Assembly (NCBI GenBank): GCA_964614645.1
Contig: CAZTMA010000001.1
Coordinates: 1,295-65,294, forward strand
Length of the DNA stretch: 64,000 bases
Direction of reading: 5' to 3'
From: an uncultured Anaerolineales bacterium
Lineage (GTDB): Bacteria > Chloroflexota > Anaerolineae > CG2-30-64-16
Positions 9,002 through 58,753 of the stretch are shown here, piece after piece. A model generated the notes under the pieces. The model was not told the DNA's origin. It made no database searches and worked only from the letters and a program-made list of their open reading frames with translations. The position numbers and the translations under genes are program-made. Each line of letters begins with the position of its first letter. Position 1 is the stretch's first letter.

Positions 9002-9170
9002 GGCTGGCCTCACAGTAGGTTGCTTGTCCATGAAAACACAATGCCCGGAGAAGCGCAAACGCGGTCTACTTCCCTTTCTCTGTCTACCAGTTACCCTGTG
9101 CTATAATGCGAAGCACTGTCCGGCTGCCCATGCGTGGCTCGGCCGGTTCCTGCGATCTCCGGAGGCCCTG

Positions 9171-12100: not shown

Positions 12101-12449
12101 ACTGGTCACGCGCGACATCGTACTGCCGCCCGCGCCGGTCAGGCTGCTCGGCCATTATCTGCTGCTGGCTCCGCCGCCGGAGCCTGCCGCGCCGGGCCAT
12201 GCCGAGGCGCGGATGCTCCTGGCGCTGGTGTCGCAGCACGCTACGCGGGCGTCGGGCAGCATCAGTGCCGGCTACAGCGCCACCGACGCGGCCAACGCCA
12301 GCCGCGTCACTATCGTGGGCGACAACGTGCCGCCGGAAGTTGAAGCGACACTCCGGGCCGCAGGATGCCAGGTGAGCCGGCTGTCGGGCGATGGTTACGC
12401 GGTCGCCGCAGGCCTGGCCCAGCTTTTTGCCGAGGGGGTGAACTCATGA
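9171..12449 (+). CDS. Large cell-envelope protein: N-terminal GH-A (GH5-like) TIM-barrel domain, at least 8 Cna-B/carboxypeptidase-regulatory-like repeats, and a C-terminal cell-wall-binding-like (CW_binding_2-like) domain
   Basis: TNNEPD acid/base-like and IISTEGGP nucleophile-like motifs. Repeated ~85-aa units (V.G.V....G.P..DV.V.L......V.TG.DGAFRF..LP.G.Y.L). C-terminal LLGHYLLL..RVTIVGDNVP...RLSGDGYAV. Start at ATG 9171 after a GGAGG site. No signal peptide found. Confidence 0.65.
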   Translation: MRLADFPRPKNDNRRGVHWSASVYHPAGGALDFWISELQAMKIKWVKVLDDSGGSSFELCQRLLAADIMPVVRLYRIEPNPGHIGGREEDTIRRLVAAGVRYFETNNEPDLPIEWKGGKKPSNWLDVVIDNFIIDADKVISLGGLPALPAMGVGSKLNPVAEVVTRGRADLFDNGAWVAIHNYTINHPLDYPYDPVNQEGQPVSEEEYDRLGQWAWEGRPREQINEWRQSDKNPGDTLADDATCFLSFHLMDQMIQEALGHAVPIISTEGGPVVGWKEDRRYPRVDPNTHAQWVAEIAEFMQGTREIHGMRCSDSYFSMCHWLIANYRMGFLAPTWESNSWYTDWWNGDFNLAGELPVVARLKALDDPPPGPVDRAVVAGHVLRADTGAGLPDLTVRLLQADREVKSAITGPDGAFRIEGLAVGVYDISIAPWGIVRRGVSAVEEGPGNPLPSVTLRLSGGQNSVLTGTVQSATGTPQADVRVWLARNGVPVGETVTGTDGAFRFEALPLGSYRLDIPGITVAGIALDGWQTKNLRLTAGAAGQYRYAVVQRRLLPQDETAGRRIFYGTVTDASGAPLNGIKLRMAWNGAEPGTDFPTTTTGRDPFKPAGSYEFVHSPGTFNLQVVQGDWPSDTAADLETAKVPGREGQDITYEVNFRLQAAGAPAQVDGMVAGGATDALLTLTAADDTVRTTRLAGDGSFVFPNLPAGTYRLSLDGIGEIAAQMVLEPGALFKLLFPMRSRLSGHVVDAGTVAPDGLVAVLYAPAPWGWTRQALLDPAGNFAIDNLPAGSYRLEINGLTLPDLALNGENELKLASLDLNQGQRSVVRGRVADGAGRPQADVLMTLRRDGILVAQTRTDIMGVYRFVRLPAGSYLLEAVGLGQVAAFVLDGERQEVADVLWPLPGPRGMVQGHVRDAAGALVSGIWVRLLSAGGEVARVQTDLTGAFRFAELPGGVYALALAEGEPLVTGIVLEEDALVTRDIVLPPAPVRLLGHYLLLAPPPEPAAPGHAEARMLLALVSQHATRASGSISAGYSATDAANASRVTIVGDNVPPEVEATLRAAGCQVSRLSGDGYAVAAGLAQLFAEGVNS

Positions 12450-13762
12450 GCCTTTCCGTACGCCTCGGACGGTTCTTCGGCCGGCGCAATATGAGCACGC
12501 CGCTGCCCGAACGCGCCGCCGTCTCGTCTGCACCCCGCGACGTGGTCAACGACGCGCAGGGGTATGGCGTCGAAATCAGGACGGCCACGGTTGCACCGGG
12601 CAGCTGGTACTGGCAGGTCGTCCGCGTACACCACCTCACCCCGGAAGAGAACGGCGGCAACCATCACATCTACATGGACATCCTCGACCCGGCCATCGGT
12701 GACGGCAGCAACCCGAACGGCGGCCGCGTCTACGGCGCGCGTGCCCGCGTGACGTGGGATGGCGGCGAGCAGATTGTGACCGTGGATAAGCCCGCGAACG
12801 AGCCGGGCACCAACTTCCCGATGTGGAAGTGGCAGGTGTGCGCTGCGGAGGCGCTGGGCCTGCCCGGTTTGGAGCTGCCCTCGGACCGCGTGACCGGCAT
12901 GCACACCGGCCACCCCGACGAAGCGCCCGGCAACACCCTGTTTCACCACTCCTTCAGCATCACCTTCGTCAAGGTCCAGGCCCCGCTGACCACCTATCGC
13001 GATAGCGTGATATACGGCGTGATATATAACGGGGAGGGGCGCACTGCTCGGCTGCTAGAGGGCGAACGCACCGTGGCGGAACAGGTCATCGGCAGCGACG
13101 AAACTTTCCGCTTTGTGGAACTGGCTGCGGGGAATTACGTGGTCGAAGTCGTGGGTGCGGGCCTGCGCTCCGAGCCGGTGCAACTGGACGGACGCAACCA
13201 GGTCCAGCTTGAACTGACCGTCATCCTGGCCGAAAGCATCATCCGCGGTCGCGTGCGTAACGGCGTCGGGCGCATCGTTACGCTCACGCGCAATGAGATA
13301 GTCGTTACTTCTCAGGTCGTCGCGTCGGACGAGACCTTCTACTTCACTGACCTGCCGGCCGGCGCATACCGCGTGGCCGTGGACGGCGCCGTCTCTGACC
13401 TCCTGACCCTGGACGGCCGGAACTCGGTCATGGTGGACCTCTTTGTGCCGCCTGCGGGCAAGCTGCTCGGCCACTATCTCCTGCTGGGCCCGGCCGGCCA
13501 GCCCGCAACCCAGGCCAACCTGGTGCTGGCACAAGAGTATATCCTGACCTTCCGGCCTTCTTTCGGCTTCAGCGCGGAGGAGGCCGCCGCAGCGGGCATG
13601 GTGACGATCCTTGCCGCAACGGATGCTGTCAGCGAGGAGACAGCGGCCGGGCTGGCTGCGGATGGCACGCCTGTGCAGCGCATTGCGGGCACGGTTGACG
13701 CGGTCGCTCAGGCGCTGGCCGCGCGGGTCGCCAGCGGCCAGCCGTTCGGACAGACCCTGTAG
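12446..13762 (+). CDS. Paralogous envelope protein: unique N-domain, 3 Cna-B-like repeats and the same C-terminal CW_binding_2-like domain
   Basis: ATGA overlap with the previous gene. C-terminal LLGHYLLLGP...MVTILAATDAVSEE...QRIAGTVDAV aligns to the C-terminus of the 9171 gene. Confidence 0.65.
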   Translation: MSLSVRLGRFFGRRNMSTPLPERAAVSSAPRDVVNDAQGYGVEIRTATVAPGSWYWQVVRVHHLTPEENGGNHHIYMDILDPAIGDGSNPNGGRVYGARARVTWDGGEQIVTVDKPANEPGTNFPMWKWQVCAAEALGLPGLELPSDRVTGMHTGHPDEAPGNTLFHHSFSITFVKVQAPLTTYRDSVIYGVIYNGEGRTARLLEGERTVAEQVIGSDETFRFVELAAGNYVVEVVGAGLRSEPVQLDGRNQVQLELTVILAESIIRGRVRNGVGRIVTLTRNEIVVTSQVVASDETFYFTDLPAGAYRVAVDGAVSDLLTLDGRNSVMVDLFVPPAGKLLGHYLLLGPAGQPATQANLVLAQEYILTFRPSFGFSAEEAAAAGMVTILAATDAVSEETAAGLAADGTPVQRIAGTVDAVAQALAARVASGQPFGQTL

Positions 13763-24911: not shown

Positions 24912-25193
24912 TTCCTGGGCCTTGTATACTGCCTCGTAATCGATCTGACTCTGTACCGTTCAGTGCACCTGTTGTCCAGGCACCTGTCATCCATGCCCGG
25001 GTGGACCGGCACGAACCCGTGTGCATGACTACACTCACTCGATGCTCCGGTTTGGTGTGCAACAAATAAAGATTGCTTCGTTTAGTCAGTTCGTGCCGGA
25101 AGGAGGAGCGTTCTTCGTCTCATCGGAGCATTTACGTACGTTCACTGCCACATTCTCACGACGGTGAAAGAACCCCAACGAGGAGGACTATCC

Positions 25194-27260
25194 ATGTCTC
25201 GCAAGTTTGTGTTCCCCCTGCTGCTGATCCTGGCCCTGATCCTGTCCGCTTGTGGCGGGGCAGCCACGCCCGCACCGGCCCCCGCGCCGGCAGCAGAAGA
25301 ACCCGCCGCAGAAGCCCCCGCTGCGGAAGAGCCCGCTGCTGAAGAACCGGTAGCGGAAGAGCCTGCGGCTGAGGAGCCTGCTGCGGAAGAGCCCGCTGCT
25401 GAAGAACCGGCCGCTGAGGAACCTGCAGCCACCGGCCAGTACAAAGAATCCCCCATGCTGGCTGAGCTGGTCGCCGCGGGCACGCTGCCGCCCATCGAGG
25501 AGCGCCTGCCCGAGGAGCCCTTCGTCGTCGGCCCCGGCACCCTGATCATCAAGGAGGACCTGCCTGACTGGCAGCCCGGCGTGTACGGCGGCATCCTCAA
25601 CTTCGCGCACGCGTCCGCCAACTGGAATCCCGACATCTTCATCATGGCCAACGACAACCTGCTGTGCGCGCCTGGCATCGGGTTGGACGGTCTCATGCCG
25701 TGTATCGTGAAGGAATACAAGGTCGAGAACGAGAACAAGGAGTTTACCTTCACGCTGCGCAAGGGCCTCAAGTGGTCCGACGGCACCCCCGTCACGACCG
25801 AGGATGTCCGCTTCGTGATGGAAGACGTCTACGGGGATGAGAAGATCACCCCCATCTACCCGGCGAAGTTCCGCGATGGCGGCCGCTCGGATGGTGAGAT
25901 TGTCAAGCTCGACATCCTCGACGACTACACCTGGAAGCTGACCTTCGGCGAACCGTACGGTGGCCTGCTGCGTGAAATCAGCGTCAAGGGCTGGCAGGGC
26001 TACACTGACATGCTGCGGCCTTCGCACGTGCTCAAGCAGTGGCACGTCAAGTACGCGGACGTCACGAGCGATGCCTTCAAGACCGAATACGAGAGGATGA
26101 ACCTGAAGGACGAATGGTGGCAGGTCTTTGCCGATAAGAACTGCACGAACTGGGACCTGACCAACCCGCGCTGCGCCAACTTCCCGGTGCTGTACGCGTG
26201 GGTCAACACCACCCCGACCGGCCAGTCCAATCTGCTCACCTTCGAGCGCAACCCCTACTACTGGAAGGTGGACAACACCGGCCAGCAGTTGCCGTACATC
26301 GACAAGCTGCAGTCGCAGCAGGTCAACGATGTCGAGATGCTGACGCTGAAGGTCTTCGCCGGCGAGGTCGACTTCGTGCGCGAGAGCACCGGCCTGAACA
26401 AGCTCCCGCTCTACAAGGAGAATGAGGAGAAGGCGGGCATCAACATCACGTTGATGGACAACCACGTCGATCCGACCGCCCTTTTCATCAACTACACCTA
26501 TGCCGATGAGAACTGGCGGACGGTGGTGGGCGATGTACGGTTCCGCCAGGCCATCACGCACGGCATCAATCGCCAGGAGATCATCGACACGGTCTACTTC
26601 GGCTATGGCCAGATGCCGACCCTGGTGCCCGCTGAGTACGACGTTGACGCCGCAAATGCGCTGCTCGACGAGATGGGCATGACCAAGAATGCAGACGGGT
26701 TGCGGGTCGGGCCGGATGGCAATGTCTTCACCATCCTGTTCGAGCACGGTGCGCACGCGCCTGACATCGCCCAGGTGGCCGAGCTGGTTGGGACGCAATT
26801 GAGGGCCAACCTGGGCCTCGATGTGCAGGTCAAGCAGCTCGATTCTGCGCTGTGGGGCACGCGCCGAGACGCTAATGAGCTACAGATGACCAGCATCTGG
26901 GACGTGCAGCCGATGTGGGCCAATGGCACCTGGACGGACTACACGCTGGAAAACCAGGCGATTCGTCTGTGGAATCAGTGGCGGACGAGCGCAGGCGCGG
27001 AAGGCGAAGAACCGCCCGCTGAGATCAAGGAGCTGTGGCGGCTGGCTGAGGTGCGCACCCAGTCCGTGCCGTTCTCCGAAGAGGATACGGCCGCCTACGC
27101 GGCCATCCGCAAGTTGCACTACGACAACATCTGGATCTTCCCCATCGCGGAGAAGGTCAACTACGCGCTGATCTCGAGCAAGAAGCTGGGCAACGTGCCG
27201 ATCTCCGGTCAGGCCATCGGCGCCGACTACAGCGGCGAGCAGTTCTTCTTCAAGCCGTAG
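25194..27260 (+). CDS. ABC transporter substrate-binding lipoprotein, family 5 (peptide/oligosaccharide/nickel type), paralogue 1
   Basis: Lipoprotein signal ...LILSACGG, an Ala/Glu/Pro repeat linker, and an SBP_bac_5-like body (WSDG..VTTEDV). Start at ATG 25194 after a GAGGAGG site. Confidence 0.85.
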   Translation: MSRKFVFPLLLILALILSACGGAATPAPAPAPAAEEPAAEAPAAEEPAAEEPVAEEPAAEEPAAEEPAAEEPAAEEPAATGQYKESPMLAELVAAGTLPPIEERLPEEPFVVGPGTLIIKEDLPDWQPGVYGGILNFAHASANWNPDIFIMANDNLLCAPGIGLDGLMPCIVKEYKVENENKEFTFTLRKGLKWSDGTPVTTEDVRFVMEDVYGDEKITPIYPAKFRDGGRSDGEIVKLDILDDYTWKLTFGEPYGGLLREISVKGWQGYTDMLRPSHVLKQWHVKYADVTSDAFKTEYERMNLKDEWWQVFADKNCTNWDLTNPRCANFPVLYAWVNTTPTGQSNLLTFERNPYYWKVDNTGQQLPYIDKLQSQQVNDVEMLTLKVFAGEVDFVRESTGLNKLPLYKENEEKAGINITLMDNHVDPTALFINYTYADENWRTVVGDVRFRQAITHGINRQEIIDTVYFGYGQMPTLVPAEYDVDAANALLDEMGMTKNADGLRVGPDGNVFTILFEHGAHAPDIAQVAELVGTQLRANLGLDVQVKQLDSALWGTRRDANELQMTSIWDVQPMWANGTWTDYTLENQAIRLWNQWRTSAGAEGEEPPAEIKELWRLAEVRTQSVPFSEEDTAAYAAIRKLHYDNIWIFPIAEKVNYALISSKKLGNVPISGQAIGADYSGEQFFFKP

Positions 27261-27488: not shown

Positions 27489-27834
27489 ACGCGTCAACAT
27501 CTTGTGGCGGCGCCCTGTACGCGTCTCTGAGCTGTTCTGCCAATCGCATCTCTCCGCCAACGGTCCTGGACTGCGTCATCTGCATCTATCCGCTGCGCCG
27601 CCCGTACTGCGGCAGCCGCACTTCGCACCTCAGTTTCGTGCCGGACAGAGCAGCCATGGCTGAATTGACGGAAGCACTGCTATTGTAGAGACTCCCTATC
27701 GGCGCCATTCAAGCCTTGATCAGAAAGGGGGTGGTAAGGAGCGATCGAATCTCATCGTAGACCTAGGGACCCGACATCGGGTGGAGGCAAGCTTTCCACC
27801 AAACATCGCCTGCTTCGAAGGAGAAAAAGGAGAC

Positions 27835-29883
27835 ATGTTCAAGAAATCCCTATGGCCCATCTTGTTGATCCTGGCGCTGGTCCTGTCCGCCTGCGGCGGC
27901 GCGGCCACGCCGGCCCCGGCGCCAGCCCCGGCCGCAGAAGAACCGGCTGCGGAAGCGCCGGCCGCTGAGGAACCTGCGGCTGAAGAACCGGCTGCTGAGG
28001 AACCTGCGGCGGAAGAACCCGCAGCAGAAGAACCCGCGGCTGCCACTGGCATGTATAAGGAATCCCCTGTCCTGGCCGAGAAGGTTGCGGCCGGCGAATT
28101 GCCCCCTGTGGATGAGCGTCTGCCCGAAGAGCCGATGGTTGTCGGCCCTGGCACGTACCTGACCGAAGAGAATCTGCCCAACTGGGAGCCCGGCGTCTAC
28201 GGCGGCACGCTCCGCTCTGCGCATGGCGTCGCCAACTGGTCGCCCGACATCTTCGTGATGGCCGACGAGCCGCTGGTCATGGCCCCGAAGATCGGTGACC
28301 AAGGCATTGTCGGCGCGGTCGTCAAGGACTTCACCGTCGAGAACGACAACAAGGACTTCACCTTCGTGCTCCGCAAGGGCCTGAAGTGGTCCGACGGTGT
28401 GCCGGTCACGACCGAGGATGTCCGCTTCACCTATGAGCAGATCATGCTCAATGAGAAGATCAACCCCATCTTCGCGGCCAAGTTCCGCAACGGCTTCAAG
28501 GCCGACGAAGAACCCATGACGCTGGAGGTCGTGGACGACTACACCTTCAAGGTCCACTTCACGAAGCCGTACGGTGGGTTCCTGCGTGCGCTGGCGATCG
28601 AAGGCTGGGTGGGCTACACCGACCTGATCAACCCGTCGCACTACCTGTCGAAATGGCATCCGGACACGAATCCCGACCTGCTGACCAGCGATGAGTACAA
28701 GGAAGCGGCCGAAACGATCAGCGTGACCGACGAGTGGTGGCAGGTCTTCGCACAGAAGCGCTGCCAGAACTGGGACCTGACCAACCCGCGCTGCGTGAAC
28801 TACCCGAGCCTCTACGCCTGGGTCGGCGTGCCGTCCGACAATGCCAGCCTGCTCACCTTTGAGCGCAACCCGTACTACTTCAAGGTTGACACCGAAGGCC
28901 AGCAGCTCCCGTACGTCGACCGCATTGTTTCCCAGCAGGTCGAGAACGTGGAAATGGTCAACATGAAGGTGTTGGCCGGCGAGGTGGACTTCCTGCGCGA
29001 GAGCACGGCCCTGGTGAAGATCCCGCTCTACAAGGAGAACGAGGAGAAGGCGGGTTTCAACACGGTCCTGCTTGACATGCACGTGGACTCCACTGGTCTG
29101 CGCCTCAACCAGACCTTCGACGATCCGGACTGGCAGGCTGCCGCGCGGGACATCCGCTTCCGCCAGGCCGTCAGCCTCGCCATCAACCGGCAGGAACTGA
29201 TCGACAGCATCTACTACGGCTATGCCAGCTTCCCGCTCACTACGGTCGGCGAGGAGTTCTCGACGTTCGATGTCGACAAGGCTAATGCGCTGCTCGACGA
29301 GATGGGCCTGACCGAGAAGGACGCCGATGGGTTCCGCAAGTACCCGAGCGGCAAGACCGTTGAAATCTTGCTGGAACACGGCGCACACGCGCCTGACCAG
29401 GGCCCGGCGGCTGACCTGACTGCGCAGTACCTGAAAGCGATCGGCATCAAGGTCACCGTGAAGCAGCTAGACTCCAACCTGTTCAGCGAGCGGTGGAATG
29501 CCAACCAGGTTCAGGCCACGGTGCACTGGAGTCACGATGTGGGCTGGGCCGGCGATATCACGCTGGGCAACTACCATCGCGCCGGCCGGCTCTGGGAAGT
29601 CTGGCGGACGTCCAACGGCGCGGACGGCGAGGAGCCGCCGGATTGGGCTAAGGAAGCCATCCAGATCGACGCGGACCGCTGGTCGGCCGTCCCCGGCACC
29701 GACGAGTACAACGGGTTGGTTGATGCCGGCCTCAAGTGGACGCGCGACAACCTGCCCTACATCAACTACGTTGAGGGCGTGAAGTACCCGATGATCGTCA
29801 ACAAGAAGATGGGCAACGTGCCCCAGGGTGGCTACGCCATCGGTTACAACTTCACCGGCCCGCAGATGTTCTTCAAGCCGTAA
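27835..29883 (+). CDS. ABC transporter substrate-binding lipoprotein, family 5, paralogue 2
   Basis: Same architecture as SBP1 (LVLSACGG, AEEP repeats, WSDG.PVTTEDV). ATG 27835 after a GGAGAAAAAGGAG site. Confidence 0.85.
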   Translation: MFKKSLWPILLILALVLSACGGAATPAPAPAPAAEEPAAEAPAAEEPAAEEPAAEEPAAEEPAAEEPAAATGMYKESPVLAEKVAAGELPPVDERLPEEPMVVGPGTYLTEENLPNWEPGVYGGTLRSAHGVANWSPDIFVMADEPLVMAPKIGDQGIVGAVVKDFTVENDNKDFTFVLRKGLKWSDGVPVTTEDVRFTYEQIMLNEKINPIFAAKFRNGFKADEEPMTLEVVDDYTFKVHFTKPYGGFLRALAIEGWVGYTDLINPSHYLSKWHPDTNPDLLTSDEYKEAAETISVTDEWWQVFAQKRCQNWDLTNPRCVNYPSLYAWVGVPSDNASLLTFERNPYYFKVDTEGQQLPYVDRIVSQQVENVEMVNMKVLAGEVDFLRESTALVKIPLYKENEEKAGFNTVLLDMHVDSTGLRLNQTFDDPDWQAAARDIRFRQAVSLAINRQELIDSIYYGYASFPLTTVGEEFSTFDVDKANALLDEMGLTEKDADGFRKYPSGKTVEILLEHGAHAPDQGPAADLTAQYLKAIGIKVTVKQLDSNLFSERWNANQVQATVHWSHDVGWAGDITLGNYHRAGRLWEVWRTSNGADGEEPPDWAKEAIQIDADRWSAVPGTDEYNGLVDAGLKWTRDNLPYINYVEGVKYPMIVNKKMGNVPQGGYAIGYNFTGPQMFFKP

Positions 29884-42372: not shown

Positions 42373-43236
42373 ATGGCAGATTTCGGCTCCATCATCAAGC
42401 AGTTGAACGAGTTGAAGAAGGAGGTCGAGAAGGTCGGTCCGGACCTGGCTCCCAAGGTCGGAGAAATCAGTGATGCCCTTGGCCGATTGTCGGTCGAGGT
42501 TGGTGAAATGACGATCGAGCACCGCCCCCAGGTCGAGCCGCCCACGCGGCCGGGCCGGGAGATCGTCGGCGGTGCGGAAACGCAGGACTTCCCCGATTGC
42601 TGCGCGCTGGGGGACGACCGCGGGTACTACTGCTCAGGCACGCTCATCGCACCGAACGTAGTTGTGACGGCGGAGCACTGCCAGGGTCTGACGCGGGTCT
42701 ACCTGCGGGGCACCGACGTGACGAAGCCGGACGGCGCCGAGATTATCCCCATCGCGGAGGAATTCGTCCACCCCGAACTCGACCTGCGCGTCCTCGTGCT
42801 CAAGCACAACGCCGCTACCCCCCCGCGTACGGTCGGCCATGCAGCGCAGTTGGACGGCATCAAAGAGGTCACGCTTGTCGGCTTCGGCACGATCGACCCG
42901 GATGGCCGGTTCGGCTACGGCATCAAGCGCCGGGTGGACGTGCCCATCAAGACGTTCGACTGTGGGCAGATGGGCGAGGCGAAGCGGTTCGGTTGCCTGC
43001 CGGGCCGGGAGATTGTCGCCGGCCATGCAGGGCTGATGCTGGATTCGTGCAAGGGTGACAGCGGCGGGCCGCTCTACATCCAGCAGGATGGCGAGTTCTA
43101 CCTGCTGGGCGTGACCTCACGCGGCGCGCGGGGCGGGTTCCGCGAGTGCGGCGACGGCGGCATCTACGTGCGTGTGGACCTGTGCCTGGATTGGATTCGC
43201 GAAGTGACCGGCGCGGAAATCGCGCAGGCCGCGTGA
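42373..43236 (+). CDS. Cytoplasmic trypsin-like (S1) serine protease with a ~55-aa N-terminal coiled-coil extension (island gene A)
   Basis: IVGG...TAEHC (His)...GDSGGP (Ser). No signal peptide or TM segment. Confidence 0.8.
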   Translation: MADFGSIIKQLNELKKEVEKVGPDLAPKVGEISDALGRLSVEVGEMTIEHRPQVEPPTRPGREIVGGAETQDFPDCCALGDDRGYYCSGTLIAPNVVVTAEHCQGLTRVYLRGTDVTKPDGAEIIPIAEEFVHPELDLRVLVLKHNAATPPRTVGHAAQLDGIKEVTLVGFGTIDPDGRFGYGIKRRVDVPIKTFDCGQMGEAKRFGCLPGREIVAGHAGLMLDSCKGDSGGPLYIQQDGEFYLLGVTSRGARGGFRECGDGGIYVRVDLCLDWIREVTGAEIAQAA

Positions 43237-43260
43237 TCGCGGAGGGCAAGGAGGTCACCG

Positions 43261-44313
43261 ATGCCTAAGGAACTCAACCGCCAGGCCCACATGGTCCTGC
43301 GCGAGGCTCTGACCGGTCTCTATTGGGACGTGAAGGACATCAGGCTGGTCACGAAGGACGCAGGGCTCAATGTCGGACGTATCGGTTGGAACGAGGCGGC
43401 ACAGATCTCGTGGGAGAACGTCCTGAATGAGGCCAACAATCAAGGCTTGGTCAAGGTGCTGGCGCAGCGCGTGCTGAAGGATTACCCCAACGAAGAGCAG
43501 ATCAAGCTGGCTGCGGCAGGCGAACTGACCGCCATCCCAACCCCTTCGCTACCTGCGGAGGACCTGGCCCGCTTGAAGACGGGGGGCCGGCTCGAGAAGA
43601 TCATCGGTGCGGCGAGCACCTTCCGGCCGATCGGGTTCCTGGAGCGCGGCATGAAGGTCTCCCGTTCGGTGTGCCGTGTCGTTCTGCCGCTGAAGCCGGG
43701 CGAGGATAAGCCCGGCACCGGCAGCGGCTTCCTCATCGACGGCAACATTCTCATCACCAACCATCACGTGCTGCCCGATGCAGCGACGGCCCGCGCCGCG
43801 CATGTTGAATTCAACTATCAAACGGACGAATTGGGTGCGGAGCTGACGCCGACCCCCTATGACCTCGATCCGGACGCGCCCAATGGGTTCGCCACCTCGC
43901 TCCTGGATGAACAAGGTGGCGACGACTGGACCGCGGTCAAGGTCAAGGGCGATCCTGCGACGAAGTGGGGCACGCTGCGCATCTTCAAGCTGGAAGCAGA
44001 GGCCATGCCGAAGGAGAAGGATGAGGTCATCGTCATCCAGCATCCCGGCGGCGGACGCAAGCAGATTGCCCTGTCGCACAACACGGTTGTCGAGGCGAGT
44101 GAGCGGCGCGTCCAGTACCTGACCGACACCGCCGAAGGCTCATCAGGCTCCCCGGTGTTCGATGTGAAGTGGCGCGTGGTCGCGCTGCACCACGCTGGCG
44201 ACTGGCTGACCGGCGTGACGACCGGCAAACCGGTATATGCCAACCAGGGGATCCACATCAATCAGGTTATCGCCGGGTTGAGAAAAGCAGGAATGTTAAC
44301 GGACGGCTCTTGA
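43261..44313 (+). CDS. N-terminal ~70-aa helical adaptor (EAD-like, 'N-dom') fused to an active Trypsin_2-like serine protease (island gene B)
   Basis: ITNHHV (His), DDWTAV (Asp), GSSGSPV (Ser). N-dom L..LY......R.V.KDAGL...RI.....AQI.W..V..EA is shared with genes C, D and E. Confidence 0.75.
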   Translation: MPKELNRQAHMVLREALTGLYWDVKDIRLVTKDAGLNVGRIGWNEAAQISWENVLNEANNQGLVKVLAQRVLKDYPNEEQIKLAAAGELTAIPTPSLPAEDLARLKTGGRLEKIIGAASTFRPIGFLERGMKVSRSVCRVVLPLKPGEDKPGTGSGFLIDGNILITNHHVLPDAATARAAHVEFNYQTDELGAELTPTPYDLDPDAPNGFATSLLDEQGGDDWTAVKVKGDPATKWGTLRIFKLEAEAMPKEKDEVIVIQHPGGGRKQIALSHNTVVEASERRVQYLTDTAEGSSGSPVFDVKWRVVALHHAGDWLTGVTTGKPVYANQGIHINQVIAGLRKAGMLTDGS

Positions 44314-44325
44314 GGAGGTCGCATC

Positions 44326-44928
44326 ATGTCGTGGCACGCATCGCTCAGCCGGTTGGTCCAGGTCCTCGCGAATCTCTATGACACCGAAGCACAGGCTCGC
44401 ATTGTGGCGAAGGATGCCGGACTGGACCTGACGCGCATTCCTCTCAGTGGCAGCGCACAGATCTTCTGGGATGCCATCGTGACCGAAGCCCACAAACAGA
44501 ACTGCATGGAAGCGCTGGTGCAGCAGGCGCGGAGTGAGTTTCCCCTGAACGCAGAACTGCAGGCGACCTTGCAGGCAATTCAGCAGGACTATCTCGCCTG
44601 GCAGCAGGAGCCGGTCGTGGTTGAGCCAGCTGCCCCGCGCATCTACCAGCTCACGCCGCAGCAGAAACGGCCGCTTGTCGATGCGCTGCTCGGTTGCCCC
44701 ACGATGCAAGCCCGCCAGAGCCGGGACACTGTCGTAGAGGATCTGCGAGCAGATATCCGGAACAACGTCGAGCGGCACAACGCGCCGCGCCTGGATGTGA
44801 ACAGCATCGTCAGCACTGCGCTGGTCTACGCGGGCGGGCTCCAGGAACTGATCGAGGCCGTGCGCAACTACGAAGGCGACTCGCTGCCGATGATAGAAGT
44901 GGACCGGGTGATCGCTTCGTTCGGGTAA
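44326..44928 (+). CDS. Adaptor protein: N-dom + C-terminal ~90-aa helical 'X' domain (...GGL.ELIEAVR.YEGDSLPM..VDRVI..FG) (island gene C)
   Basis: By-eye alignment of its N-dom to gene B and of its X domain to genes D and E. Confidence 0.65.
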   Translation: MSWHASLSRLVQVLANLYDTEAQARIVAKDAGLDLTRIPLSGSAQIFWDAIVTEAHKQNCMEALVQQARSEFPLNAELQATLQAIQQDYLAWQQEPVVVEPAAPRIYQLTPQQKRPLVDALLGCPTMQARQSRDTVVEDLRADIRNNVERHNAPRLDVNSIVSTALVYAGGLQELIEAVRNYEGDSLPMIEVDRVIASFG

Positions 44929-44963
44929 GGCCATAGCGTCAGTTGCACAGGAGGGCCGGGGGG

Positions 44964-46640
44964 ATGGACGTCGCCAAACAGCGGGAAATCGTGGAGGCTC
45001 TCACTGCCTGTCCCAGCATGGGCAGCGAGCCGCGCCGCGACGCGGTCGTGGAAGAACTGCGCGAGAGCATCCGGTCTGCGATCGACCGCAGCGCGTCAGG
45101 CCGCGATGATGTGACGGCGATTGTCCGCGCCTGTCTCCAGTTCTTCAACGGGCTGGAGGAACTGGTGGCCGCGGTGCGCGTACGCGACGGGGACTCGCTT
45201 CCGATGCAGAACCTCGACCGGGTGATTCTGCGGGTGTTCGGCTTCGACCTGGCGGAGGAGGAGATGGGCCTGCGGTTGCTGACCGTGCTGGCGGGCATCC
45301 AGGCCGCACCGGACGACCTCCAGCGCACCTACCGGCGTCTCCTGCCGCCCGACGTGGCGCCCGCCCCGGATGCTCGCGGCCTGTTCAGCGTGTTGCCGCA
45401 TCTCTGGCAGATATCGCGTGAACTGGCGACGCAGAGCCGCACCGGCAACGTACCGATCCTCGACTTCGTCGAACAACTGGCGCGCGATGCGCCGGGCAGC
45501 GTCGCGGGCCAGTTGCGCGGCTGGGCAACCGAGGTGACATCCCTGGTGCTCTCGACCGGACCCGCGGGACGGCCGGCGGACATGGTTATGCGCGGCACCG
45601 GAACCGGCGACGGCGGGGTCAGCGCGCTGGACCCGCGGCTGGCCATCCTCGCCAGCGTGCTCGCGGCCCTCTATCCTTCTATAGAGGCGTCGGGTGAGCT
45701 GGTGGCCGCAGCGCGCCTGAATCCGGTCGGCATCGAGTTTCGCGAACTGCCCTCGCTCAACTGGCACAACATCCTGACGGCTGCCGCGCGGCGCGACCGC
45801 GTTAGCCACCTGGTCGAAGCTGCGCTGGCAGACCAGCCAGACAACCCCTGGCTGAAGGTGGCGCTGGGCCAGCAGCAGTCGGCTTATGAGCCCGAGGTGC
45901 GGCCTTCCGATGAGCCCACAGCGGTAGCGCAACCATCGCCGGCCGCGGGAAGCCCGCTGCCGGCCTGGCCGCAGCACGTCAGCTTTCTGGAAGAAGCCCT
46001 GAATCGCGCCCAGGCGGTGCTGCTCATCCAGTTACCAAATGGGGGCAGTGGTACCGGCTTCCTCGTACAAGGTGATCTCCTGATTACCGGTGGATTCAAC
46101 ATCCGCAATGTTGCCGAGGCACGCGAGGCTGTCGTCCGCTGCAATTTCCAGCGTACGATGGGAGAACTGATGACGACTTCTGAGGAGCTCCGCCTGTTGC
46201 CGGATCAAGGCTTTGCAACCACAGAGGATCGGCTATGGACTGCGGTGCGGGTTGCCAGGAAGCCGACTGAACGCTACGGCTATCTGCACCTTGAGCCGGC
46301 CAGCCCCCAGGTCAAGGATCGGGTCAGCCTGATCCATCATACCGGAGGCGGGCCGAAGCAACTGGAACTTCTAAATCGGATTGTAATTGATGTGGACAAA
46401 TCCAGTCTCCAGTATGACACGGAGAACCCCCTCCACAGCATCAAGCAGCCCGGGTCCGGGGGGGCGCCGATCTTCGATGTGAATTGGCGGGTCGTCGGGG
46501 TGCATCGTGCGCACGGCACGCTGAAGGCCCTTTCCGGTGGGGAGCGCCGTTGCAGCGAAGGGGTGCACATCAATGTCATCATCGAGGGGTTGAAGGCCGC
46601 CGGCCTGTATCTGGGCAAGGGGGAGGGTGAGACACCATGA
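44964..46640 (+). CDS. X domain + linker + N-dom + degenerate (His- and Ser-less) trypsin-like domain, a pseudoprotease (island gene D)
   Basis: Aligned to gene B, ITNHHV becomes ITGGFN and GSSGSPV becomes GSGGAPI. The X domain sits at the N-terminus (EELVAAVRVRDGDSLPMQNLDRVI). Confidence 0.65.
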   Translation: MDVAKQREIVEALTACPSMGSEPRRDAVVEELRESIRSAIDRSASGRDDVTAIVRACLQFFNGLEELVAAVRVRDGDSLPMQNLDRVILRVFGFDLAEEEMGLRLLTVLAGIQAAPDDLQRTYRRLLPPDVAPAPDARGLFSVLPHLWQISRELATQSRTGNVPILDFVEQLARDAPGSVAGQLRGWATEVTSLVLSTGPAGRPADMVMRGTGTGDGGVSALDPRLAILASVLAALYPSIEASGELVAAARLNPVGIEFRELPSLNWHNILTAAARRDRVSHLVEAALADQPDNPWLKVALGQQQSAYEPEVRPSDEPTAVAQPSPAAGSPLPAWPQHVSFLEEALNRAQAVLLIQLPNGGSGTGFLVQGDLLITGGFNIRNVAEAREAVVRCNFQRTMGELMTTSEELRLLPDQGFATTEDRLWTAVRVARKPTERYGYLHLEPASPQVKDRVSLIHHTGGGPKQLELLNRIVIDVDKSSLQYDTENPLHSIKQPGSGGAPIFDVNWRVVGVHRAHGTLKALSGGERRCSEGVHINVIIEGLKAAGLYLGKGEGETP

Positions 46641-47797
46641 AGTTTGAGGATATCGTGCGCCGGCTGGCGGATTTGTTGGCCGAGTTGTTCCCCGCAGCGG
46701 CCGCTGGGCCGCGCCTTGCCGAGGCAGCCGGCATCGAGTTGGAAGGCAGCCTGCTCGACGGGGGCCAGGATCGGGTAGCCTGGTGGCGCGCCGCGCTCAG
46801 CACAGTGACGGAGGAACAGGTGGGCAAGCTGCTGGCGCTGGCCCAGCAGGAGCGTGCCGGTTCCTTTGCCCTGTTGATCCTGCAGAGCGAATTCGAGCGG
46901 TGGTGGCGCGAACGCCACCAGGTCTACCGCGGGGCCAAATCCGGAGCCCGACCTGAACCGGTGTCCCCACCGGCACCCATTTCGAAGGACGTGGAGCCGC
47001 CCGAAACCACCGGGCCATCCGCTCCGCAATCCTCTTTCTCCGCTGGGGTTGCGGCAGTGACTACCCTGCGGCTGGACGCTGCCGTGCCGGAGCGCGTCGT
47101 AGTAGGCCGGCCCTTCACGATTGCCGTGGCCGTCCGCCAACTGGCCTCCCCGCGGCTGAGCGAGGCGGATATGCCTGTGATGCGCTCCAGCGATGCGCAG
47201 GTGTTCTGGCCCGCGGGGCAGCCGTTCGTGCGGCTGCGCCTCGAGGTCTCGTCGGCATACTGCACGGTGAACAATGAGTCATCGCGCGCCTTCAGGCTCT
47301 ACCAGGCCCACGACTCGCCCACATTCTACTTCTCCCTGACGCCCACCGTTACCGGCCAGATCGATGTCCATATCGAGCTGTACCAGGAAGATGACCTCAT
47401 CGGCAGCACGCGCATCAACACCACGGCGGATGAGCAGGTGCAGCGGCTGGCCGGCACGGTCGAGATCGTGATGCACAGCCAGACCGTCGAGGCTGCGCGG
47501 ATGACGGCCGCGGCGAAGATGAAATTGGCGAAGACGCTGCTGCGCTGCCCGACCGTCCTCGACCGGGAGAATCGGGATGCGATCGTCACCGATCTGCCCG
47601 AGGAGATTCGGCTTGGAGTGAGCCGCAGCGATTCAGCCCTGCTCGACGTCCAGAACATCATCGGGCTGGCTTTGAACTATGAGGGAGGGCTGAACGCCTT
47701 CATCGAGGGGGTGCGCCTGTTCGAAGGCAATTCGCTCCCCATGGCGAAGGTGGATCGCGTCCTGGGCGAGATTGGTTGGGTCGGTCTGGCGGACTGA
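46637..47797 (+). CDS. N-dom + beta-rich middle domain + C-terminal X domain (island gene E)
   Basis: 4-nt overlap with gene D. C-terminus ...GGLNAFIEGVRLFEGNSLPMAKVDRVLGEIG. Confidence 0.65.
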   Translation: MKFEDIVRRLADLLAELFPAAAAGPRLAEAAGIELEGSLLDGGQDRVAWWRAALSTVTEEQVGKLLALAQQERAGSFALLILQSEFERWWRERHQVYRGAKSGARPEPVSPPAPISKDVEPPETTGPSAPQSSFSAGVAAVTTLRLDAAVPERVVVGRPFTIAVAVRQLASPRLSEADMPVMRSSDAQVFWPAGQPFVRLRLEVSSAYCTVNNESSRAFRLYQAHDSPTFYFSLTPTVTGQIDVHIELYQEDDLIGSTRINTTADEQVQRLAGTVEIVMHSQTVEAARMTAAAKMKLAKTLLRCPTVLDRENRDAIVTDLPEEIRLGVSRSDSALLDVQNIIGLALNYEGGLNAFIEGVRLFEGNSLPMAKVDRVLGEIGWVGLAD

Positions 47798-50882: not shown

Positions 50883-51851
50883 GTGGCTATGACTGAGGAA
50901 GCGCGCTTGAGTGCCTACGACGATGCACCCGTCTACACCATCAAGACGGTCGTGCAGGAGACGGGCATCCCGCCGGCCACGTTGCGGGCCTGGGAACGGC
51001 GTTACGGGGTATTGTCGCCCGGCCGCAGCGACGGCGGCTATCGGCTCTATTCGGAGCGCGATATCGCCATCCTGCGCTGGCTGAAAACGCAGGTGGATAC
51101 AGGCGTCTCCATCAGCCGGGCTGTGGCGCTCCTGGAACTGCGGCACCAGGCCGGGGAGCAGCCGGAACGCAAGACCGCCCGATCCGGGCCGGATCAGGCG
51201 CTACTGGCCCCGGCGGGAGCGCGCAGCGCCGATGCCATCGGTGATGAACTGGTGGATGCTCTGTTAGCATTCCAGGAAGCGCGCGTGGAAACCCTCCTGA
51301 ACGAGGCCTTCGCGCTGTATCCGGTGGAAGCGGTGGCCGAGGACATCATCACGCCGGTCCTCGTTGAAATCGGTGAGATGTGGCACCGAGGCGAGGCGAG
51401 CGTCGTGCAGGAGCACTTCGCCACGGCAATCCTGCGCCGCCGGCTGACCGCCCTGTTCCACGCCTACGCGCAGCCCGCCGCGGGGCCGCTGGCCATGACC
51501 GGCTCCGGCCCGTCGGAATGGCATGATGTGGGCATTTTGCTCGTCAGTCTGGTGCTGCGCCGGATGGGTTGGCGGGTCATCTATCTGGGCCAGAATGTGC
51601 CTGCAGACCACTTGGGGCAGGAGATCGCCCGGCTGCGGCCCGCGCTGGTTTGCCTCTCCGCCAGTACCCGCGAAAGCGGAGACGCGCTGGCAGATGTATA
51701 CGAGTTAGTGCGCGCTCTGCCGGAGCCCCGGCCGCGCCTGGTCTTCGGCGGCCGCGCGTTCAATATTCACCCGGAACTGCGGAGCCGCTTTGCCGGCACC
51801 TACATCGCAGGCAGCGCTCGCGAACTCGCAAACGAATTAAGCCTCGGCTGA
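50883..51851 (+). CDS. carH: MerR-family regulator with C-terminal cobalamin-binding domain (CarH/LitR-like light sensor), paralogue 1
   Basis: MerR HTH (YTIKTVVQETGIPPATLRAWERRYG), W-x9-EH motif (EMWHRGEASVVQEHF), B12 Rossmann motif (EWHDVG). Confidence 0.8.
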   Translation: MAMTEEARLSAYDDAPVYTIKTVVQETGIPPATLRAWERRYGVLSPGRSDGGYRLYSERDIAILRWLKTQVDTGVSISRAVALLELRHQAGEQPERKTARSGPDQALLAPAGARSADAIGDELVDALLAFQEARVETLLNEAFALYPVEAVAEDIITPVLVEIGEMWHRGEASVVQEHFATAILRRRLTALFHAYAQPAAGPLAMTGSGPSEWHDVGILLVSLVLRRMGWRVIYLGQNVPADHLGQEIARLRPALVCLSASTRESGDALADVYELVRALPEPRPRLVFGGRAFNIHPELRSRFAGTYIAGSARELANELSLG

Positions 51852-52019: not shown

Positions 52020-52988
52020 GTGAGCATCAACGTGAACGAGCAGCGAGGCGAGACAGATACGCAGCCCGTGTATAACATCAAGGCGGTGGTGGAGGCCACG
52101 GGTCTGCCCGCGGCCACCTTGCGCGCCTGGGAACGGCGCTATGGCGCCCTTGTGCCCGGCCGCACCGACAGCGGCTACCGGCTCTATTCGGCTCAGGACA
52201 TCAAGGTGCTGCGCTGGCTCAAGGCGCGCGTGGAAGAAGGTCTCACGATTAGCCAGGCGATTGCCCTCCACCGCCATCGCAGGCTGGGCGAGCCCGGCGC
52301 AGCGGCCGACGAGCCTCGCGCTGAGAGCCGCCAGGGCCTGACCGGCGCGCGGGATATGCTGCTGGCTGCGCTGATAGATTTTGAGGAGGCGCAGGCTGAC
52401 CGGCTTCTGGAAGAGGCCTTTGCCGTGTACGGCCTCGAAGCGGTGACCGAGCATGTCATCGGCCCCACGATGGTGCAGATCGGTGACCGTTGGCATCGCG
52501 GGGAAGTGACCACCGCGGTCGAACATTTCGCGAGCAACTATCTGCGCCGCAAGATAGACGCCATCATCAACGCCGCGCCGCGCAGCGCCGCCGGCCCCCT
52601 GGTTGTCTTGGGATGTGCGCCGAACGATTGGCATGAGCTTGGGCTGCTCCTCATCTACCTGTTACTGCGCCGCCGCGGCCTGCGCACCCTTTACCTGGGC
52701 CAGAATGTGCCGGTGCTGCAGTTTGTCGAAGAAATGGAACGTCTGCGCCCCGCCATCGTCGTTATTGCTGCTACCACTGCTGAGACCGCTGGCGGCGTTG
52801 GGGAGCTGGCTGCAGCCCTACAGAGCCTGCCCGAACCGCGGCCGGTGTTTGCCTTTGGAGGTCGGGCCTTTAACGTTCAGCCTGAATTGCGCAGGGAGAT
52901 TCCGGGCATCTTTCTGGGCGAGAACGCACGTTCCGCCGTCGAGTACCTCGTAGCCTTACTCGATGACATTAAAACAGTTAGTCCGTAG
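52020..52988 (+). CDS. carH: MerR-family B12-binding regulator (CarH/LitR-like), paralogue 2
   Basis: YNIKAVVEATGLPAATLRAWERRYG, DRWHRGEVTTAVEHF, NDWHELG. Confidence 0.8.
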   Translation: MSINVNEQRGETDTQPVYNIKAVVEATGLPAATLRAWERRYGALVPGRTDSGYRLYSAQDIKVLRWLKARVEEGLTISQAIALHRHRRLGEPGAAADEPRAESRQGLTGARDMLLAALIDFEEAQADRLLEEAFAVYGLEAVTEHVIGPTMVQIGDRWHRGEVTTAVEHFASNYLRRKIDAIINAAPRSAAGPLVVLGCAPNDWHELGLLLIYLLLRRRGLRTLYLGQNVPVLQFVEEMERLRPAIVVIAATTAETAGGVGELAAALQSLPEPRPVFAFGGRAFNVQPELRREIPGIFLGENARSAVEYLVALLDDIKTVSP

Positions 52989-57088: not shown

Positions 57089-58753
57089 ATGACAGGCAAA
57101 AGGTTGTATTCAGAACGTATGCAACAACGAAGAATTACGGACGACCTGGATGCCCTGCTCCAGGTCCTGCCGCCACCCGTCGAACAAGCGTTGCGGGAAT
57201 CCAATCAGGGCGATAGCCTGCTGGAAGTCATCCTGGACCTGGGAAGGCTGCCAGAGGCCCGTTTTGTGGACCGCGAGCTGGTGTTGAGCCAGCGCGAGGT
57301 CAGCGAAGATGACCTGAAGTTTGTCATCGATCGCATCGGCATGTTCACCGGCGACAACCGGGCCGGCATCGAGCGCACGCTCCACCGCATCTCGTGTATC
57401 CGCAACCGGCAGGGCCGCATCATCGGCCTGACCTGTCGTGTCGGCCGCGCGGTGTACGGCGTGATCGATATCATCGAGGATATCGTCAAGTCCGGCCAGA
57501 GCATCCTGCTGCTGGGCCGGCCGGGCGTCGGCAAGACGACCTTGCTGCGCGAGGCCGCGCGCATTCTGAGCGAGAAGGCGCGCGTCGTCGTCGTGGATAC
57601 GTCCAACGAAATCGGCGGCGACGGCGACATCCCGCACCCGGCCATCGGCCGCGCGCGGCGCATGCAGGTGGCCGCGCCCGAGTTGCAGCACGAGGTCATG
57701 ATCGAGGCCGTCGAGAATCACATGCCGCAGATCATCGTCATCGACGAGATCGGTCGCGAGCAGGAAGCCGCGGCAGCCCGCACCATCGCGGAGCGCGGCG
57801 TGCAACTGGTCGGCACTGCGCACGGCAACAGCCTCGAAAATCTGCTCATCAACCCGACTCTGTCAGACCTGGTGGGCGGCATCGAGAGCGTCACGTTGAG
57901 CGACGAAGAAGCGCGCCGCCGCGGCACGCAGAAGTCTGTGCTGGAACGCCGCGCGCCGCCCACGTTCGATGTGCTGATCGAGCTGCAGGATCGCCAGCGC
58001 ATGGCCGTGCATCACAGCGTGGCCGCAGCCGTGGATGCCATCCTGCGGGGCCGGTCGCTGCAGCCGGAGATTCGTTTCCGTGACGAGAGCGGCCAGGTGC
58101 GCATTGAGAAGGCGCCCGCGCCGCTGCCCGAATCGCGCACCATGGGCGCGGGGCCGGGGATGAACCGTTTGCCTTTCGAGAAGCGCGGCAATGGCCGCTC
58201 CAATGATGTGGAGCGCGGCGGTCCTATGCGCGGCAGCCAGCCGCAGTATCAGGCGACCCCGGATGAAGCGCCGCAGCCCGCGCGCCAACAGGCTCAGACC
58301 CTGCGGGTCTATCCCTATGGGGTGGGCCGCGGCCGGCTCATTCAGGCCGCACAGAACCTCGGTGTGCCGATTGCGTTGGTGGACAGCCTCGAGCAGGCCA
58401 ACGCGGTCGTGACGCTGAAGAATTACTATCGCAAGCACCCGCAGCCCATCTCGGATGCGGAGCGCCGCCGGATTCCGGTGTATGTGCTGCGCGCCAATAC
58501 CATGAATCAGGTCGAGTCGTTCCTGGGCGATGTGTTCGGCCTGCCGGTGGTGATGGAGGATCCGGTGGAGCAGGCCGTGGCCGAGACCCAGGAGGCCATT
58601 CGCCGCGTACTGGGAGGATCGAACTCGGAGGAACTGCGGCCCGCAGGGGCGGACGTCCGGCGGATGCAGCACGAGATGGCGCGGGCCGCGAATCTCGTGT
58701 CGCACAGCTACGGCAATGAACCGCGGCGCCGCGTACGTATCTTTCCGGGCTAG
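57089..58753 (+). CDS. AAA-type ATPase of the SpoIIIAA/Ycf45-like family with C-terminal R3H-like nucleic-acid-binding region
   Basis: LLLGRPGVGKTTLLRE, VVIDEIG Walker B, sensor region GTAHGNSLENL. An alternative start is the ATG at 57119. Confidence 0.7.
   Translation: MTGKRLYSERMQQRRITDDLDALLQVLPPPVEQALRESNQGDSLLEVILDLGRLPEARFVDRELVLSQREVSEDDLKFVIDRIGMFTGDNRAGIERTLHRISCIRNRQGRIIGLTCRVGRAVYGVIDIIEDIVKSGQSILLLGRPGVGKTTLLREAARILSEKARVVVVDTSNEIGGDGDIPHPAIGRARRMQVAAPELQHEVMIEAVENHMPQIIVIDEIGREQEAAAARTIAERGVQLVGTAHGNSLENLLINPTLSDLVGGIESVTLSDEEARRRGTQKSVLERRAPPTFDVLIELQDRQRMAVHHSVAAAVDAILRGRSLQPEIRFRDESGQVRIEKAPAPLPESRTMGAGPGMNRLPFEKRGNGRSNDVERGGPMRGSQPQYQATPDEAPQPARQQAQTLRVYPYGVGRGRLIQAAQNLGVPIALVDSLEQANAVVTLKNYYRKHPQPISDAERRRIPVYVLRANTMNQVESFLGDVFGLPVVMEDPVEQAVAETQEAIRRVLGGSNSEELRPAGADVRRMQHEMARAANLVSHSYGNEPRRRVRIFPG

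Follow-up and report, generated by a model that had tools for sequence, protein, structure and literature searches.

A predicted, selectively maintained trypsin-fold pseudoprotease among the adaptors and proteases of an Anaerolineales operon

Introduction

Pseudoenzyme regulators are central to the control of cell death in animals. The main example is cFLIP, the gene for which sits beside its live paralogues in the CFLAR-CASP10-CASP8 cluster. The present work concerns a bacterial gene, here called D, in a 64,000-nucleotide stretch of an uncultured Anaerolineales bacterium (assembly GCA_964614645.1, contig CAZTMA010000001.1, positions 1,295 to 65,294; hereafter the window), which encodes a trypsin-like domain without a catalytic triad. 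It is the fourth of five tightly packed genes on the + strand, A to E, that cover 42373-47797 in the list of open reading frames (ORFs) and their Pfam matches. Inactive trypsin domains have been reported before, and dominant-negative or peptide-binding roles have been proposed for them (Kaur, Burroughs, Iyer and Aravind, 2020, eLife; PMC7159879). The idea of the pseudoprotease, the EAD vocabulary and the logic of homotypic adaptors are thus already published by these authors. For inactive trypsin domains of bacterial conflict systems, predictions from sequence exist and no experimental study was found in the literature searched.

The closest described systems are those of EAD and VMAP proteins (PMC7159879; PMC8195603), where the principle of the EAD is the homotypic coupling of proteins (PMC7159879). 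As in those systems, copies of EAD1 and of EAD2 are here spread over neighbouring genes and linked to trypsin-like peptidases. At least two neighbouring genes encode the same EAD, and in one of their products it is joined to an effector or signalling enzyme. D also has a helical region with a marginal match to VMAP-M0. The host lineage is probably filamentous; the table of Kaur et al scores Anaerolinea as multicellular, and the close homologues come from Anaerolineae metagenome-assembled genomes (MAGs). The differences are equally clear. No VMAP-C, MoxR, vWA, GAP1 or STAND domain is found within the 64-kb window, and the dead trypsin domain of D stands behind EAD2, VMAP-M0 and EAD1 in a stand-alone protein rather than being fused to a vWA protein. 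This order of domains does not occur in the part of the supplementary table of Kaur et al that was covered. EAD2 has been described as mainly actinobacterial and cyanobacterial, whereas the locus described here belongs to the Anaerolineae (Chloroflexota).

A second group comprises the type II gasdermin and CARD-NLR system of Lysobacter (PMC10312443) and LypABC of Caulobacter (PMC13236601). Like these, the locus has at least two trypsin-like protease genes in one operon, and a trypsin-like protease is preceded on its N-terminal side by a CARD-like death fold. One of the two Lysobacter proteases can do without its active site (PMC10312443). The proteases of the CARD-NLR systems nevertheless keep their catalytic residues, which D does not, and neither their NLR-like STAND ATPase nor a gasdermin or nuclease effector is present in the operon or the window; because these are missing, the operon is not a system of that kind.

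Two further proteins offer parallels for a dead protease. In cFLIP(L), death-fold adaptors are fused to the dead paralogue of a protease, and it modulates the proximity-induced activation of caspase-8 within a homotypic-adaptor assembly (PMC7586951). Only the architecture matches: the caspase and trypsin folds differ, so that for the protease part the likeness is analogy and not homology, and D has EAD2 and VMAP-M0 in addition. MamO, of magnetotactic bacteria, is a pseudoprotease of the trypsin fold whose active site is degenerate. Its gene shares an island with that of the live trypsin-like protease MamE, the proteolysis of which MamO promotes without catalysis (PMC4794232). MamO and MamE are, however, HtrA-type membrane proteins of biomineralisation, with di-histidine metal binding and no death-fold adaptors, and the dead state arose there independently.

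Results

All three catalytic residues of D are replaced

In BLASTP the proteins encoded by B and D are 30% identical over 347 columns (E 2e-39), a span that includes both EAD1 and the protease. This bears out the proposal of an earlier note on this DNA that D encodes a paralogue of the B protease; B is live and belongs to the same operon. The alignment exceeds the roughly 190 residues given there because the N-terminal EAD1 of B aligns too. For comparison we used 150 representatives of an exhaustive HMMER search (2,263 matches at E ≤0.001) and a 153-sequence MAFFT alignment. In this family the catalytic positions are the second His of TN[NH]H, the Asp directly before WTAV and the Ser that is the third residue of GSSGSP. 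All three are kept in about 143 of the 150 representatives, and among these active members the His and the Asp are conserved in 100% and the Ser in 97%. The corresponding motifs of B (TNHHV, DWTAV and GSSGSP) are intact, as they are in its orthologues.

In D the His box ITNHHV has become ITGGFN and the Ser box GSSGSP has become GSGGAP, exactly as the earlier note had it. The same note took the Asp region to be retained. WTAV is indeed kept, but Leu stands in place of the catalytic Asp that immediately precedes it in live members, and therefore all three triad residues are lost, the positions being occupied by Phe378, Leu424 and Gly499 (Table 1). A hidden Markov model (HMM) built from triad-intact members only aligns D through all three motifs, with maximal posterior and 270 bits. 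The BLASTP, MAFFT and active-members-only HMM alignments agree, which rules out a different register that restores the triad, the possibility named at the outset as one that could overturn the proposal. No substitute His, Asp or Ser is conserved near the former triad in the orthologue alignment. With Phe378, Leu424 and Gly499 found in three independent alignments, D is by the triad criterion not an active S1 serine peptidase and, judged from its sequence, is unable to use the classical triad.

Hydrolysis through non-canonical residues such as His459, Lys465 and His514, which are invariant across live and dead members of the family, is very improbable. Gly or Ala stands in place of the nucleophile, and two orthologues have Ala instead of the neighbouring Ser498. 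The three invariant residues are not a replacement catalytic set because they are equally conserved in the triad-intact members.

Live members of the family have 47 columns with a conservation of 80% or more. In D, 29 of these are retained, so that the structural core is kept, and 18 are lost (counted by hand); the chance that all three triad columns, which are the most invariant of the family, fall among the 18 is about 0.05 (hypergeometric, calculated by hand). Besides the triad, the Asn beside the His (TN-x-H), the TDT loop and the pre-protease LEKIxG are lost across the dead clade. In the dead members examined at the position of residue 378 of D (including P0005, P0086 and P0087) a Phe or Tyr always replaces the catalytic His. 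The other changed triad positions carry hydrophobic or small residues; P0086 has Asn for Asp and keeps the Ser. The aromatic residue at the His position may represent a recurrent way of filling and stabilising an empty active site.

The dead state is old and has been maintained

Replacements of the same kind (F/Y, L/I/M and G/A) are found in four orthologues from independent assemblies, which are 80-87% identical to D, and in P0005, at 48%. The loss of His and Ser is thus conserved in orthologues, with the domain dead down to 48% identity (P0002-P0005). The ratio of non-synonymous to synonymous substitutions (dN/dS; Nei-Gojobori, domain averages from three genome pairs) is 0.16-0.19 for the whole of D and 0.13-0.18 for its dead domain, against about 1 for the adjacent linker. 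The live domain of B gives 0.13 in two of the three pairs and 0.05 in the third, against a locus (L006) in which B is 96% identical. Purifying selection, a trypsin fold modelled at high confidence and the presence of Phe378 and Gly499 together substantiate the original description of a retained fold that has lost its nucleophile and general base.

Apart from the triad loss itself nothing favours recent decay or an assembly artefact, or a protease domain that is a degenerating relic. The ORF is intact at 558 aa, four assemblies and the 48%-identical homologue share the substitutions, the dN/dS of the domain is far from that of the linker and the fold is modelled with high confidence. The probability of such an explanation seems to us close to negligible, and the conservation in orthologues and the dN/dS effectively refute it. 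D combines purifying selection with the phylogenetic persistence of an inactive domain, as a maintained pseudoenzyme does, and on these comparisons of sequence it is a real, selectively maintained pseudoprotease.

A homologue with 42% identity, P0006, has the same four-domain architecture and an intact His, Asp and Ser. In a neighbour-joining tree the grouping is ((D clade, P0005), P0006), while B falls with P0045; the tree rules out D as a recent tandem duplicate of B. Because P0006 is a live outgroup of the same architecture, the architecture predates the triad loss, which was later fixed and kept. In the tree D belongs to an old clade, apart from B, that has a four-domain architecture of its own. 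This EAD2-VMAP-M0-EAD1-dead-trypsin type comprises about seven sequences in the databases searched. A genome scan for D-type loci returned two Anaerolineae MAGs and one unrelated trypsin, and a metagenome scan one 1.6-kb fragment.

The dead domain and its possible ligands

The trypsin domain of D scores above the curated cut-off of Trypsin_2 and has the double beta-barrel of the PA clan, with a predicted local distance difference test score (pLDDT) of 94-98 in the AlphaFold2 model. The nearest solved folds are those of the V8 and Esp glutamyl endopeptidases and of the protease domain of FAM111A, which is the closest Foldseek match. Unlike D, these are active enzymes without an EAD, and the identity is 15-17%; a search of PDB sequences for relatives of this domain gave insignificant matches only. 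The best matches of the domain, which is the paralogue of that of B, are to Glu-specific endopeptidases, and these together with the family-invariant His514 would be weakly compatible with Glu-directed cleavage.

In D the family-conserved TDT loop is TEN, and the six-residue insertion PLHSIK, which is conserved in close orthologues, lies alongside. This remodelling of the substrate side would suit a dead domain whose role is to bind or to sense, be it as a decoy for inhibitors that invaders encode against B-type or A-type proteases or as a peptide receptor. A ligand on D would then nucleate EAD assembly and switch the cascade on, making D a sensor and not a brake. Peptide-binding and decoy roles have been proposed for inactive enzymes (Kaur et al, PMC7159879), and the fold matches of the domain include pseudoproteases that act by binding, namely SMIPP-S, the S1C domain of RsgI9, haptoglobin and HGF. 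The family-invariant His514 is retained in D, the cluster contains no other obvious sensor, with no nucleoside triphosphatase (NTPase) in the window, and viral inhibitors are known to target FAM111A, the structurally closest eukaryotic protease. On the other hand, the insertion is missing from the 48%-identical dead P0005, and because of this no conserved new pocket is evident; dN/dS is also uniformly low, with no diversifying selection in whole-domain averages of the three pairs. We regard a sensor or decoy as the main rival to a regulatory role and as unlikely.

Between EAD1 and the protease the live members of the family conserve the segment LEKIxG..STLLPIxFLExG (43531-43635 in B), which could be a processing or autoinhibitory segment. 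The motif is absent from the linker of D at that point, and in the D clade its first part is replaced by the neutrally evolving Pro/Ala-rich linker.

The adaptors would connect the products of four genes

EAD1 is present on B, C and D, and weakly on E, while EAD2 is present on C, D and E; HMMs built locally for the two domains match nothing in the window outside these four genes. Among C, D and E the EAD2 domains share 36-48% identity, that of C being closest to those of D and E (48%). The EAD1 domains of B and C are closest to each other (33%, E 4e-13), and that of D is closest to that of B (27%, E 6e-8). Under homotypic coupling of the EADs, the operon would therefore encode a connected network, with B, C and D joined by EAD1 and C, D and E by EAD2. 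The best structural match of the EAD1 of D is the CARD of the Lysobacter trypsin-like immune protease, though the sequence identity is only 16%; that CARD is experimentally essential (PMC10312443). With its EAD1 placed directly before the dead protease, D resembles by analogy the design of cFLIP(L), in which a death-fold domain precedes the dead protease paralogue; this gives a firmer basis to the comparison with eukaryotic death pathways that the earlier note had drawn. The EAD1 HMM also gives weak secondary matches inside EAD2 regions and vice versa (residues 51-79 and 277-298 of D, 153-185 and 62-72 of C), which hints that the two domains are distantly related helical bundles.

The VMAP-M0 region of D is helical (pLDDT 68-86; dN/dS 0.06-0.10), and its match to the family is marginal: 27.1 bits against a cut-off of 25.9, with 22.0 and 21.7 bits, below the cut-off, for P0005 and P0006. 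VMAP-M0 has been reported in VMAPs only, and EAD-bearing satellites away from their core are described (PMC7159879). D might accordingly be a satellite of a VMAP-MoxR-vWA or other NTPase system encoded elsewhere, the operon not being autonomous; the locus of the live P0006 has a Walker A-like GPRSGKS protein directly downstream of it. Against this, neither the window nor the syntenic loci of 14-22 kb contain a VMAP-C, MoxR or vWA domain or a core component (VMAP, iSTAND, GAP1 or Ubl) bearing an EAD, the VMAP-M0 score is marginal, and the genes are kept together in other genomes at the same site (all five in L001 and L006, B to E in L002), a joint retention that points to a self-contained module. 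We give only a slim chance to this satellite reading, by which D is a VMAP derivative in which VMAP-C has been replaced and the dead trypsin is the effector-position domain, as in Kaur et al. A satellite is largely compatible with the explanation that we prefer, of D as a tethered regulator. D as a VMAP proper was rejected, since it has no VMAP-C, its C-terminal half being a B-like module, and its VMAP-M0 score is marginal. The order of genes also differs from that of VMAP, MoxR and vWA: downstream of D comes E and then convergent TrkH/TrkA.

Organisation of the operon and its neighbours

The coordinates of the genes, of the domains of D and of the replaced residues are collected in Table 1.

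Table 1. Genes A to E, domains of D and positions of the former triad (positions in the window)
Feature	Positions	Strand	Description
Gene A	42373-43236	+	S1A chymotrypsin-type protease; Pfam Trypsin PF00089, 67.6 bits
Gene B	43261-44313	+	EAD1 (27.5 bits) and live Trypsin_2 (77.6 bits), Pfam
Gene C	44326-44928	+	Adaptor only: EAD1 (44.3 bits) and EAD2 (72.3 bits), Pfam
Gene D	44964-46640	+	558 aa: EAD2, VMAP-M0, EAD1, dead Trypsin_2, Pfam
D, EAD2	44991-45227	+	Pfam PF19956, 71 bits; 36-48% identical to EAD2 of C and E
D, VMAP-M0-like helical middle	45270-45536	+	Pfam PF19916, 27.1 bits (cut-off 25.9)
D, EAD1	45633-45881	+	CARD-like death-fold helical bundle
D, Pro/Ala/Ser-rich linker	45882-45977	+	dN/dS 0.83-1.2; 34-37% aa identity among orthologues; pLDDT <50
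D, dead trypsin-fold domain	45978-46598	+	Pfam Trypsin_2 PF13365
D, codon TTC, Phe378	46095-46097	+	Catalytic His position; Phe or Tyr in every dead relative
D, codon CTA, Leu424	46233-46235	+	Catalytic Asp position; Leu, Ile or Met in dead clade
D, six-residue insertion PLHSIK	46428-46445	+	Loop just before former Ser motif; pLDDT 72-79
D, codon GGG, Gly499	46458-46460	+	Catalytic Ser position; Gly or Ala in dead clade
Gene E	46637-47797	+	Weak EAD1-like N-terminus, DUF7363-like middle, EAD2 C-terminus, Pfam

The most likely start of D is the ATG at 44964, which has AGGAGG 8 nt upstream and is also the start in database entries. Its stop overlaps the start of E as ATGA. A scan of the operon for promoters and terminators gave nothing exceeding shuffled expectation, and no model in PADLOC or NCBIfam matches C, D or E. 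The product of E scores 52.2 bits for EAD2, with 18.2 bits for EAD1 and 22.6 bits for DUF7363 both below cut-off; its EAD1 is recognised by the local HMM at E 5.6e-5. A role for E as a sensor or additional adaptor is possible.

A has intact motifs (TAEHC, DLRVL and GDSGGP) preceded by a helical N-terminal extension of about 63 aa, which does not resemble a signal peptide and ends in GRE|IVGG, a zymogen-type junction. A is a candidate for the downstream (executioner) protease and may be a zymogen that B activates.

The flanks of the operon are of housekeeping type, with GH127, an HpcH aldolase and a 2-hydroxyacid dehydrogenase upstream and the convergent TrkH/TrkA downstream (all by Pfam). None of the 25 flanking ORFs matches MoxR, vWA, VMAP-C or STAND in Pfam. 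The one AAA match, at 57089-58753, was rejected as a core NTPase; the protein is of SpoIIIAA/R3H type and looks like a housekeeping protein.

In the loci L001 and L006 the complete set A to E is found in synteny at the same chromosomal site, and B to E keep their order in L002, where the contig ends at the place expected for A. Divergence from L001 is a mosaic, with a nucleotide identity of 87% for the flank and A, 75% for B and C and 83% from D onward; in L006 the protein encoded by B is 96% identical and that of D only 82%. The synonymous divergence (dS) of B and C, 0.85-0.98, is twice the 0.41 of the flanking dehydrogenase. Because of this mosaic against the flanks, it is suggested that the segment with B and C (43245-44924) was recombined or exchanged as an allele between lineages.

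Three more distant loci contain related proteins. On a 3.2-kb contig (L004) a TPR gene and a C-like adaptor precede the dead P0005. In L005 the order is an astacin-like peptidase fragment, an adaptor of x-EAD2 form, the live D-like P0006, the GPRSGKS protein and a protein whose trypsin domain has Ser changed to Gly, so that a C-like adaptor precedes the D-like gene in both L004 and L005. The GPRSGKS protein (2975-4129 of L005; 384 aa) has the Walker A-like motif and hhhhDD and no match in Pfam or NCBIfam. The last protein (4126-5271) has PGSGGAP and no His box, and the dead role in L005 thus appears to be on a gene other than the D-like one. In L010 a caspase fragment and an uncharacterised gene are followed by P0086, an EAD1-trypsin that is independently dead (His to Phe, Asp to Asn), and by a live A-like S1 protease (2388-2882). 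The identity of the latter to A is 44% by MAFFT and 42% by BLASTP; it shares the MxDFxSI N-terminus of A and has the junction AE|IVDG (Glu|IVxG), which suggests that the A-like protease is a recurrent cytoplasmic zymogen partner of EAD1-(pseudo)trypsins. In three loci, then, live and dead trypsin-fold proteins seem to recur together with the dead role on different genes, a suggestive pattern.

Elsewhere in the window, two tandem paralogous regulators with MerR-type helix-turn-helix and B12-binding domains (50883-51851 and 52020-52988) are CarH-like, that is, light or B12 sensors; they adjoin a ParA/CbiA-like ATPase gene and are kept in the syntenic loci. Two tandem family-5 solute-binding proteins (SBP_bac_5) of about 700 aa (25164-27260 and 27781-29883) lie in a stretch of slightly lower GC content (0.61-0.62). 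An ORF of 1,211 aa (8814-12449) with at least four CarboxypepD_reg or SdrD-B-type beta-sandwich repeats probably encodes a surface protein, and a further protein with Ig-like repeats follows it (12365-13762).

Discussion

What D does in place of catalysis may be considered from its neighbours. We lean, by a little, towards D as a hub without catalysis, tethered by its adaptors, that regulates or scaffolds the proteases encoded beside it; D carries two adaptor types that it shares with other products of the operon (EAD1 with B, EAD1 and EAD2 with C, EAD2 with E). Through EAD2-EAD2 contacts D would be held to C and E, and through EAD1-EAD1 contacts to B, directly or by way of C. The dead domain would then pair with the live domain of B or compete for the surface that B presents to its partner, and D would in this way set the threshold of the proximity-induced activation of B, much as has been described for cFLIP(L) with caspase-8 and MamO with MamE. 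E, or an NTPase core whose genes lie elsewhere, might sense the trigger that releases or assembles B. Once active, B would process downstream targets, of which the most obvious is the pro-form of A, at Glu|IVGG.

The more specific model, in which B is gated by a heterodimer with D, is possible and rather doubtful. The FAM111A protease depends on dimerisation (PMC10920703), and by analogy a pairing of the protease domains of B and D is plausible. Several observations weigh against the regulator and its pairing with B. D is not the closest relative of B, with about 30% identity, B being nearest to P0045, and a specific pairing is consequently not implied by a recent duplication. The remodelled TDT loop, which resembles part of an S1 pocket, would fit a new binding function equally well. 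There is no NTPase, VMAP-C, MoxR or vWA within 64 kb, and the dead D-like gene of L004 has a C-like adaptor and no adjacent B or E on its 3.2-kb contig. The proposed cleavage of A is based solely on the conserved junction motif, and some seven sequences of the D type give low comparative power.

The boldest extension is that D is a bacterial, trypsin-fold counterpart of cFLIP and the five genes a self-contained, NTPase-free suicide or defence cascade. By this analogy the CARD-like EAD1 of D would recruit D to that of B, the dead domain would gate activation by forming a heterodimer with the live domain of B, the adaptors would gather B, and B would convert the cytoplasmic zymogen A by cutting at Glu|IVGG. 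We consider it decidedly unlikely. If it were true, filamentous bacteria would have put together, independently and from serine proteases, a cascade that has death-fold adaptors, an initiator protease, a brake in the form of a pseudo-protease and a zymogen as executioner.

The locus differs from the published cases in the stand-alone four-domain architecture and in an operon that encodes nothing but adaptors and proteases, 64 kb of sequence around it being free of an NTPase core. It differs also in the evidence for an old, selected loss with a live outgroup and in the assignment of EAD1, from its predicted structure, to the CARD-like death fold. Concept and vocabulary are already in the literature (Kaur et al, 2020, 2021; Wein et al, 2023), and any advance would for that reason lie in the mechanism and not in the concept. 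The locus is compact: 5.4 kb hold a live and a dead paralogue, the CARD-like adaptors of which match, together with an adaptor that would bridge them and a protease that resembles a zymogen. A natural control is available in P0006, the homologue of the same architecture that is still live. It is therefore a clean experimental entry to the control of bacterial protease cascades by pseudoproteases, and could reveal how protease cascades of bacterial immunity or death are thresholded and whether they can operate without an NTPase switch.

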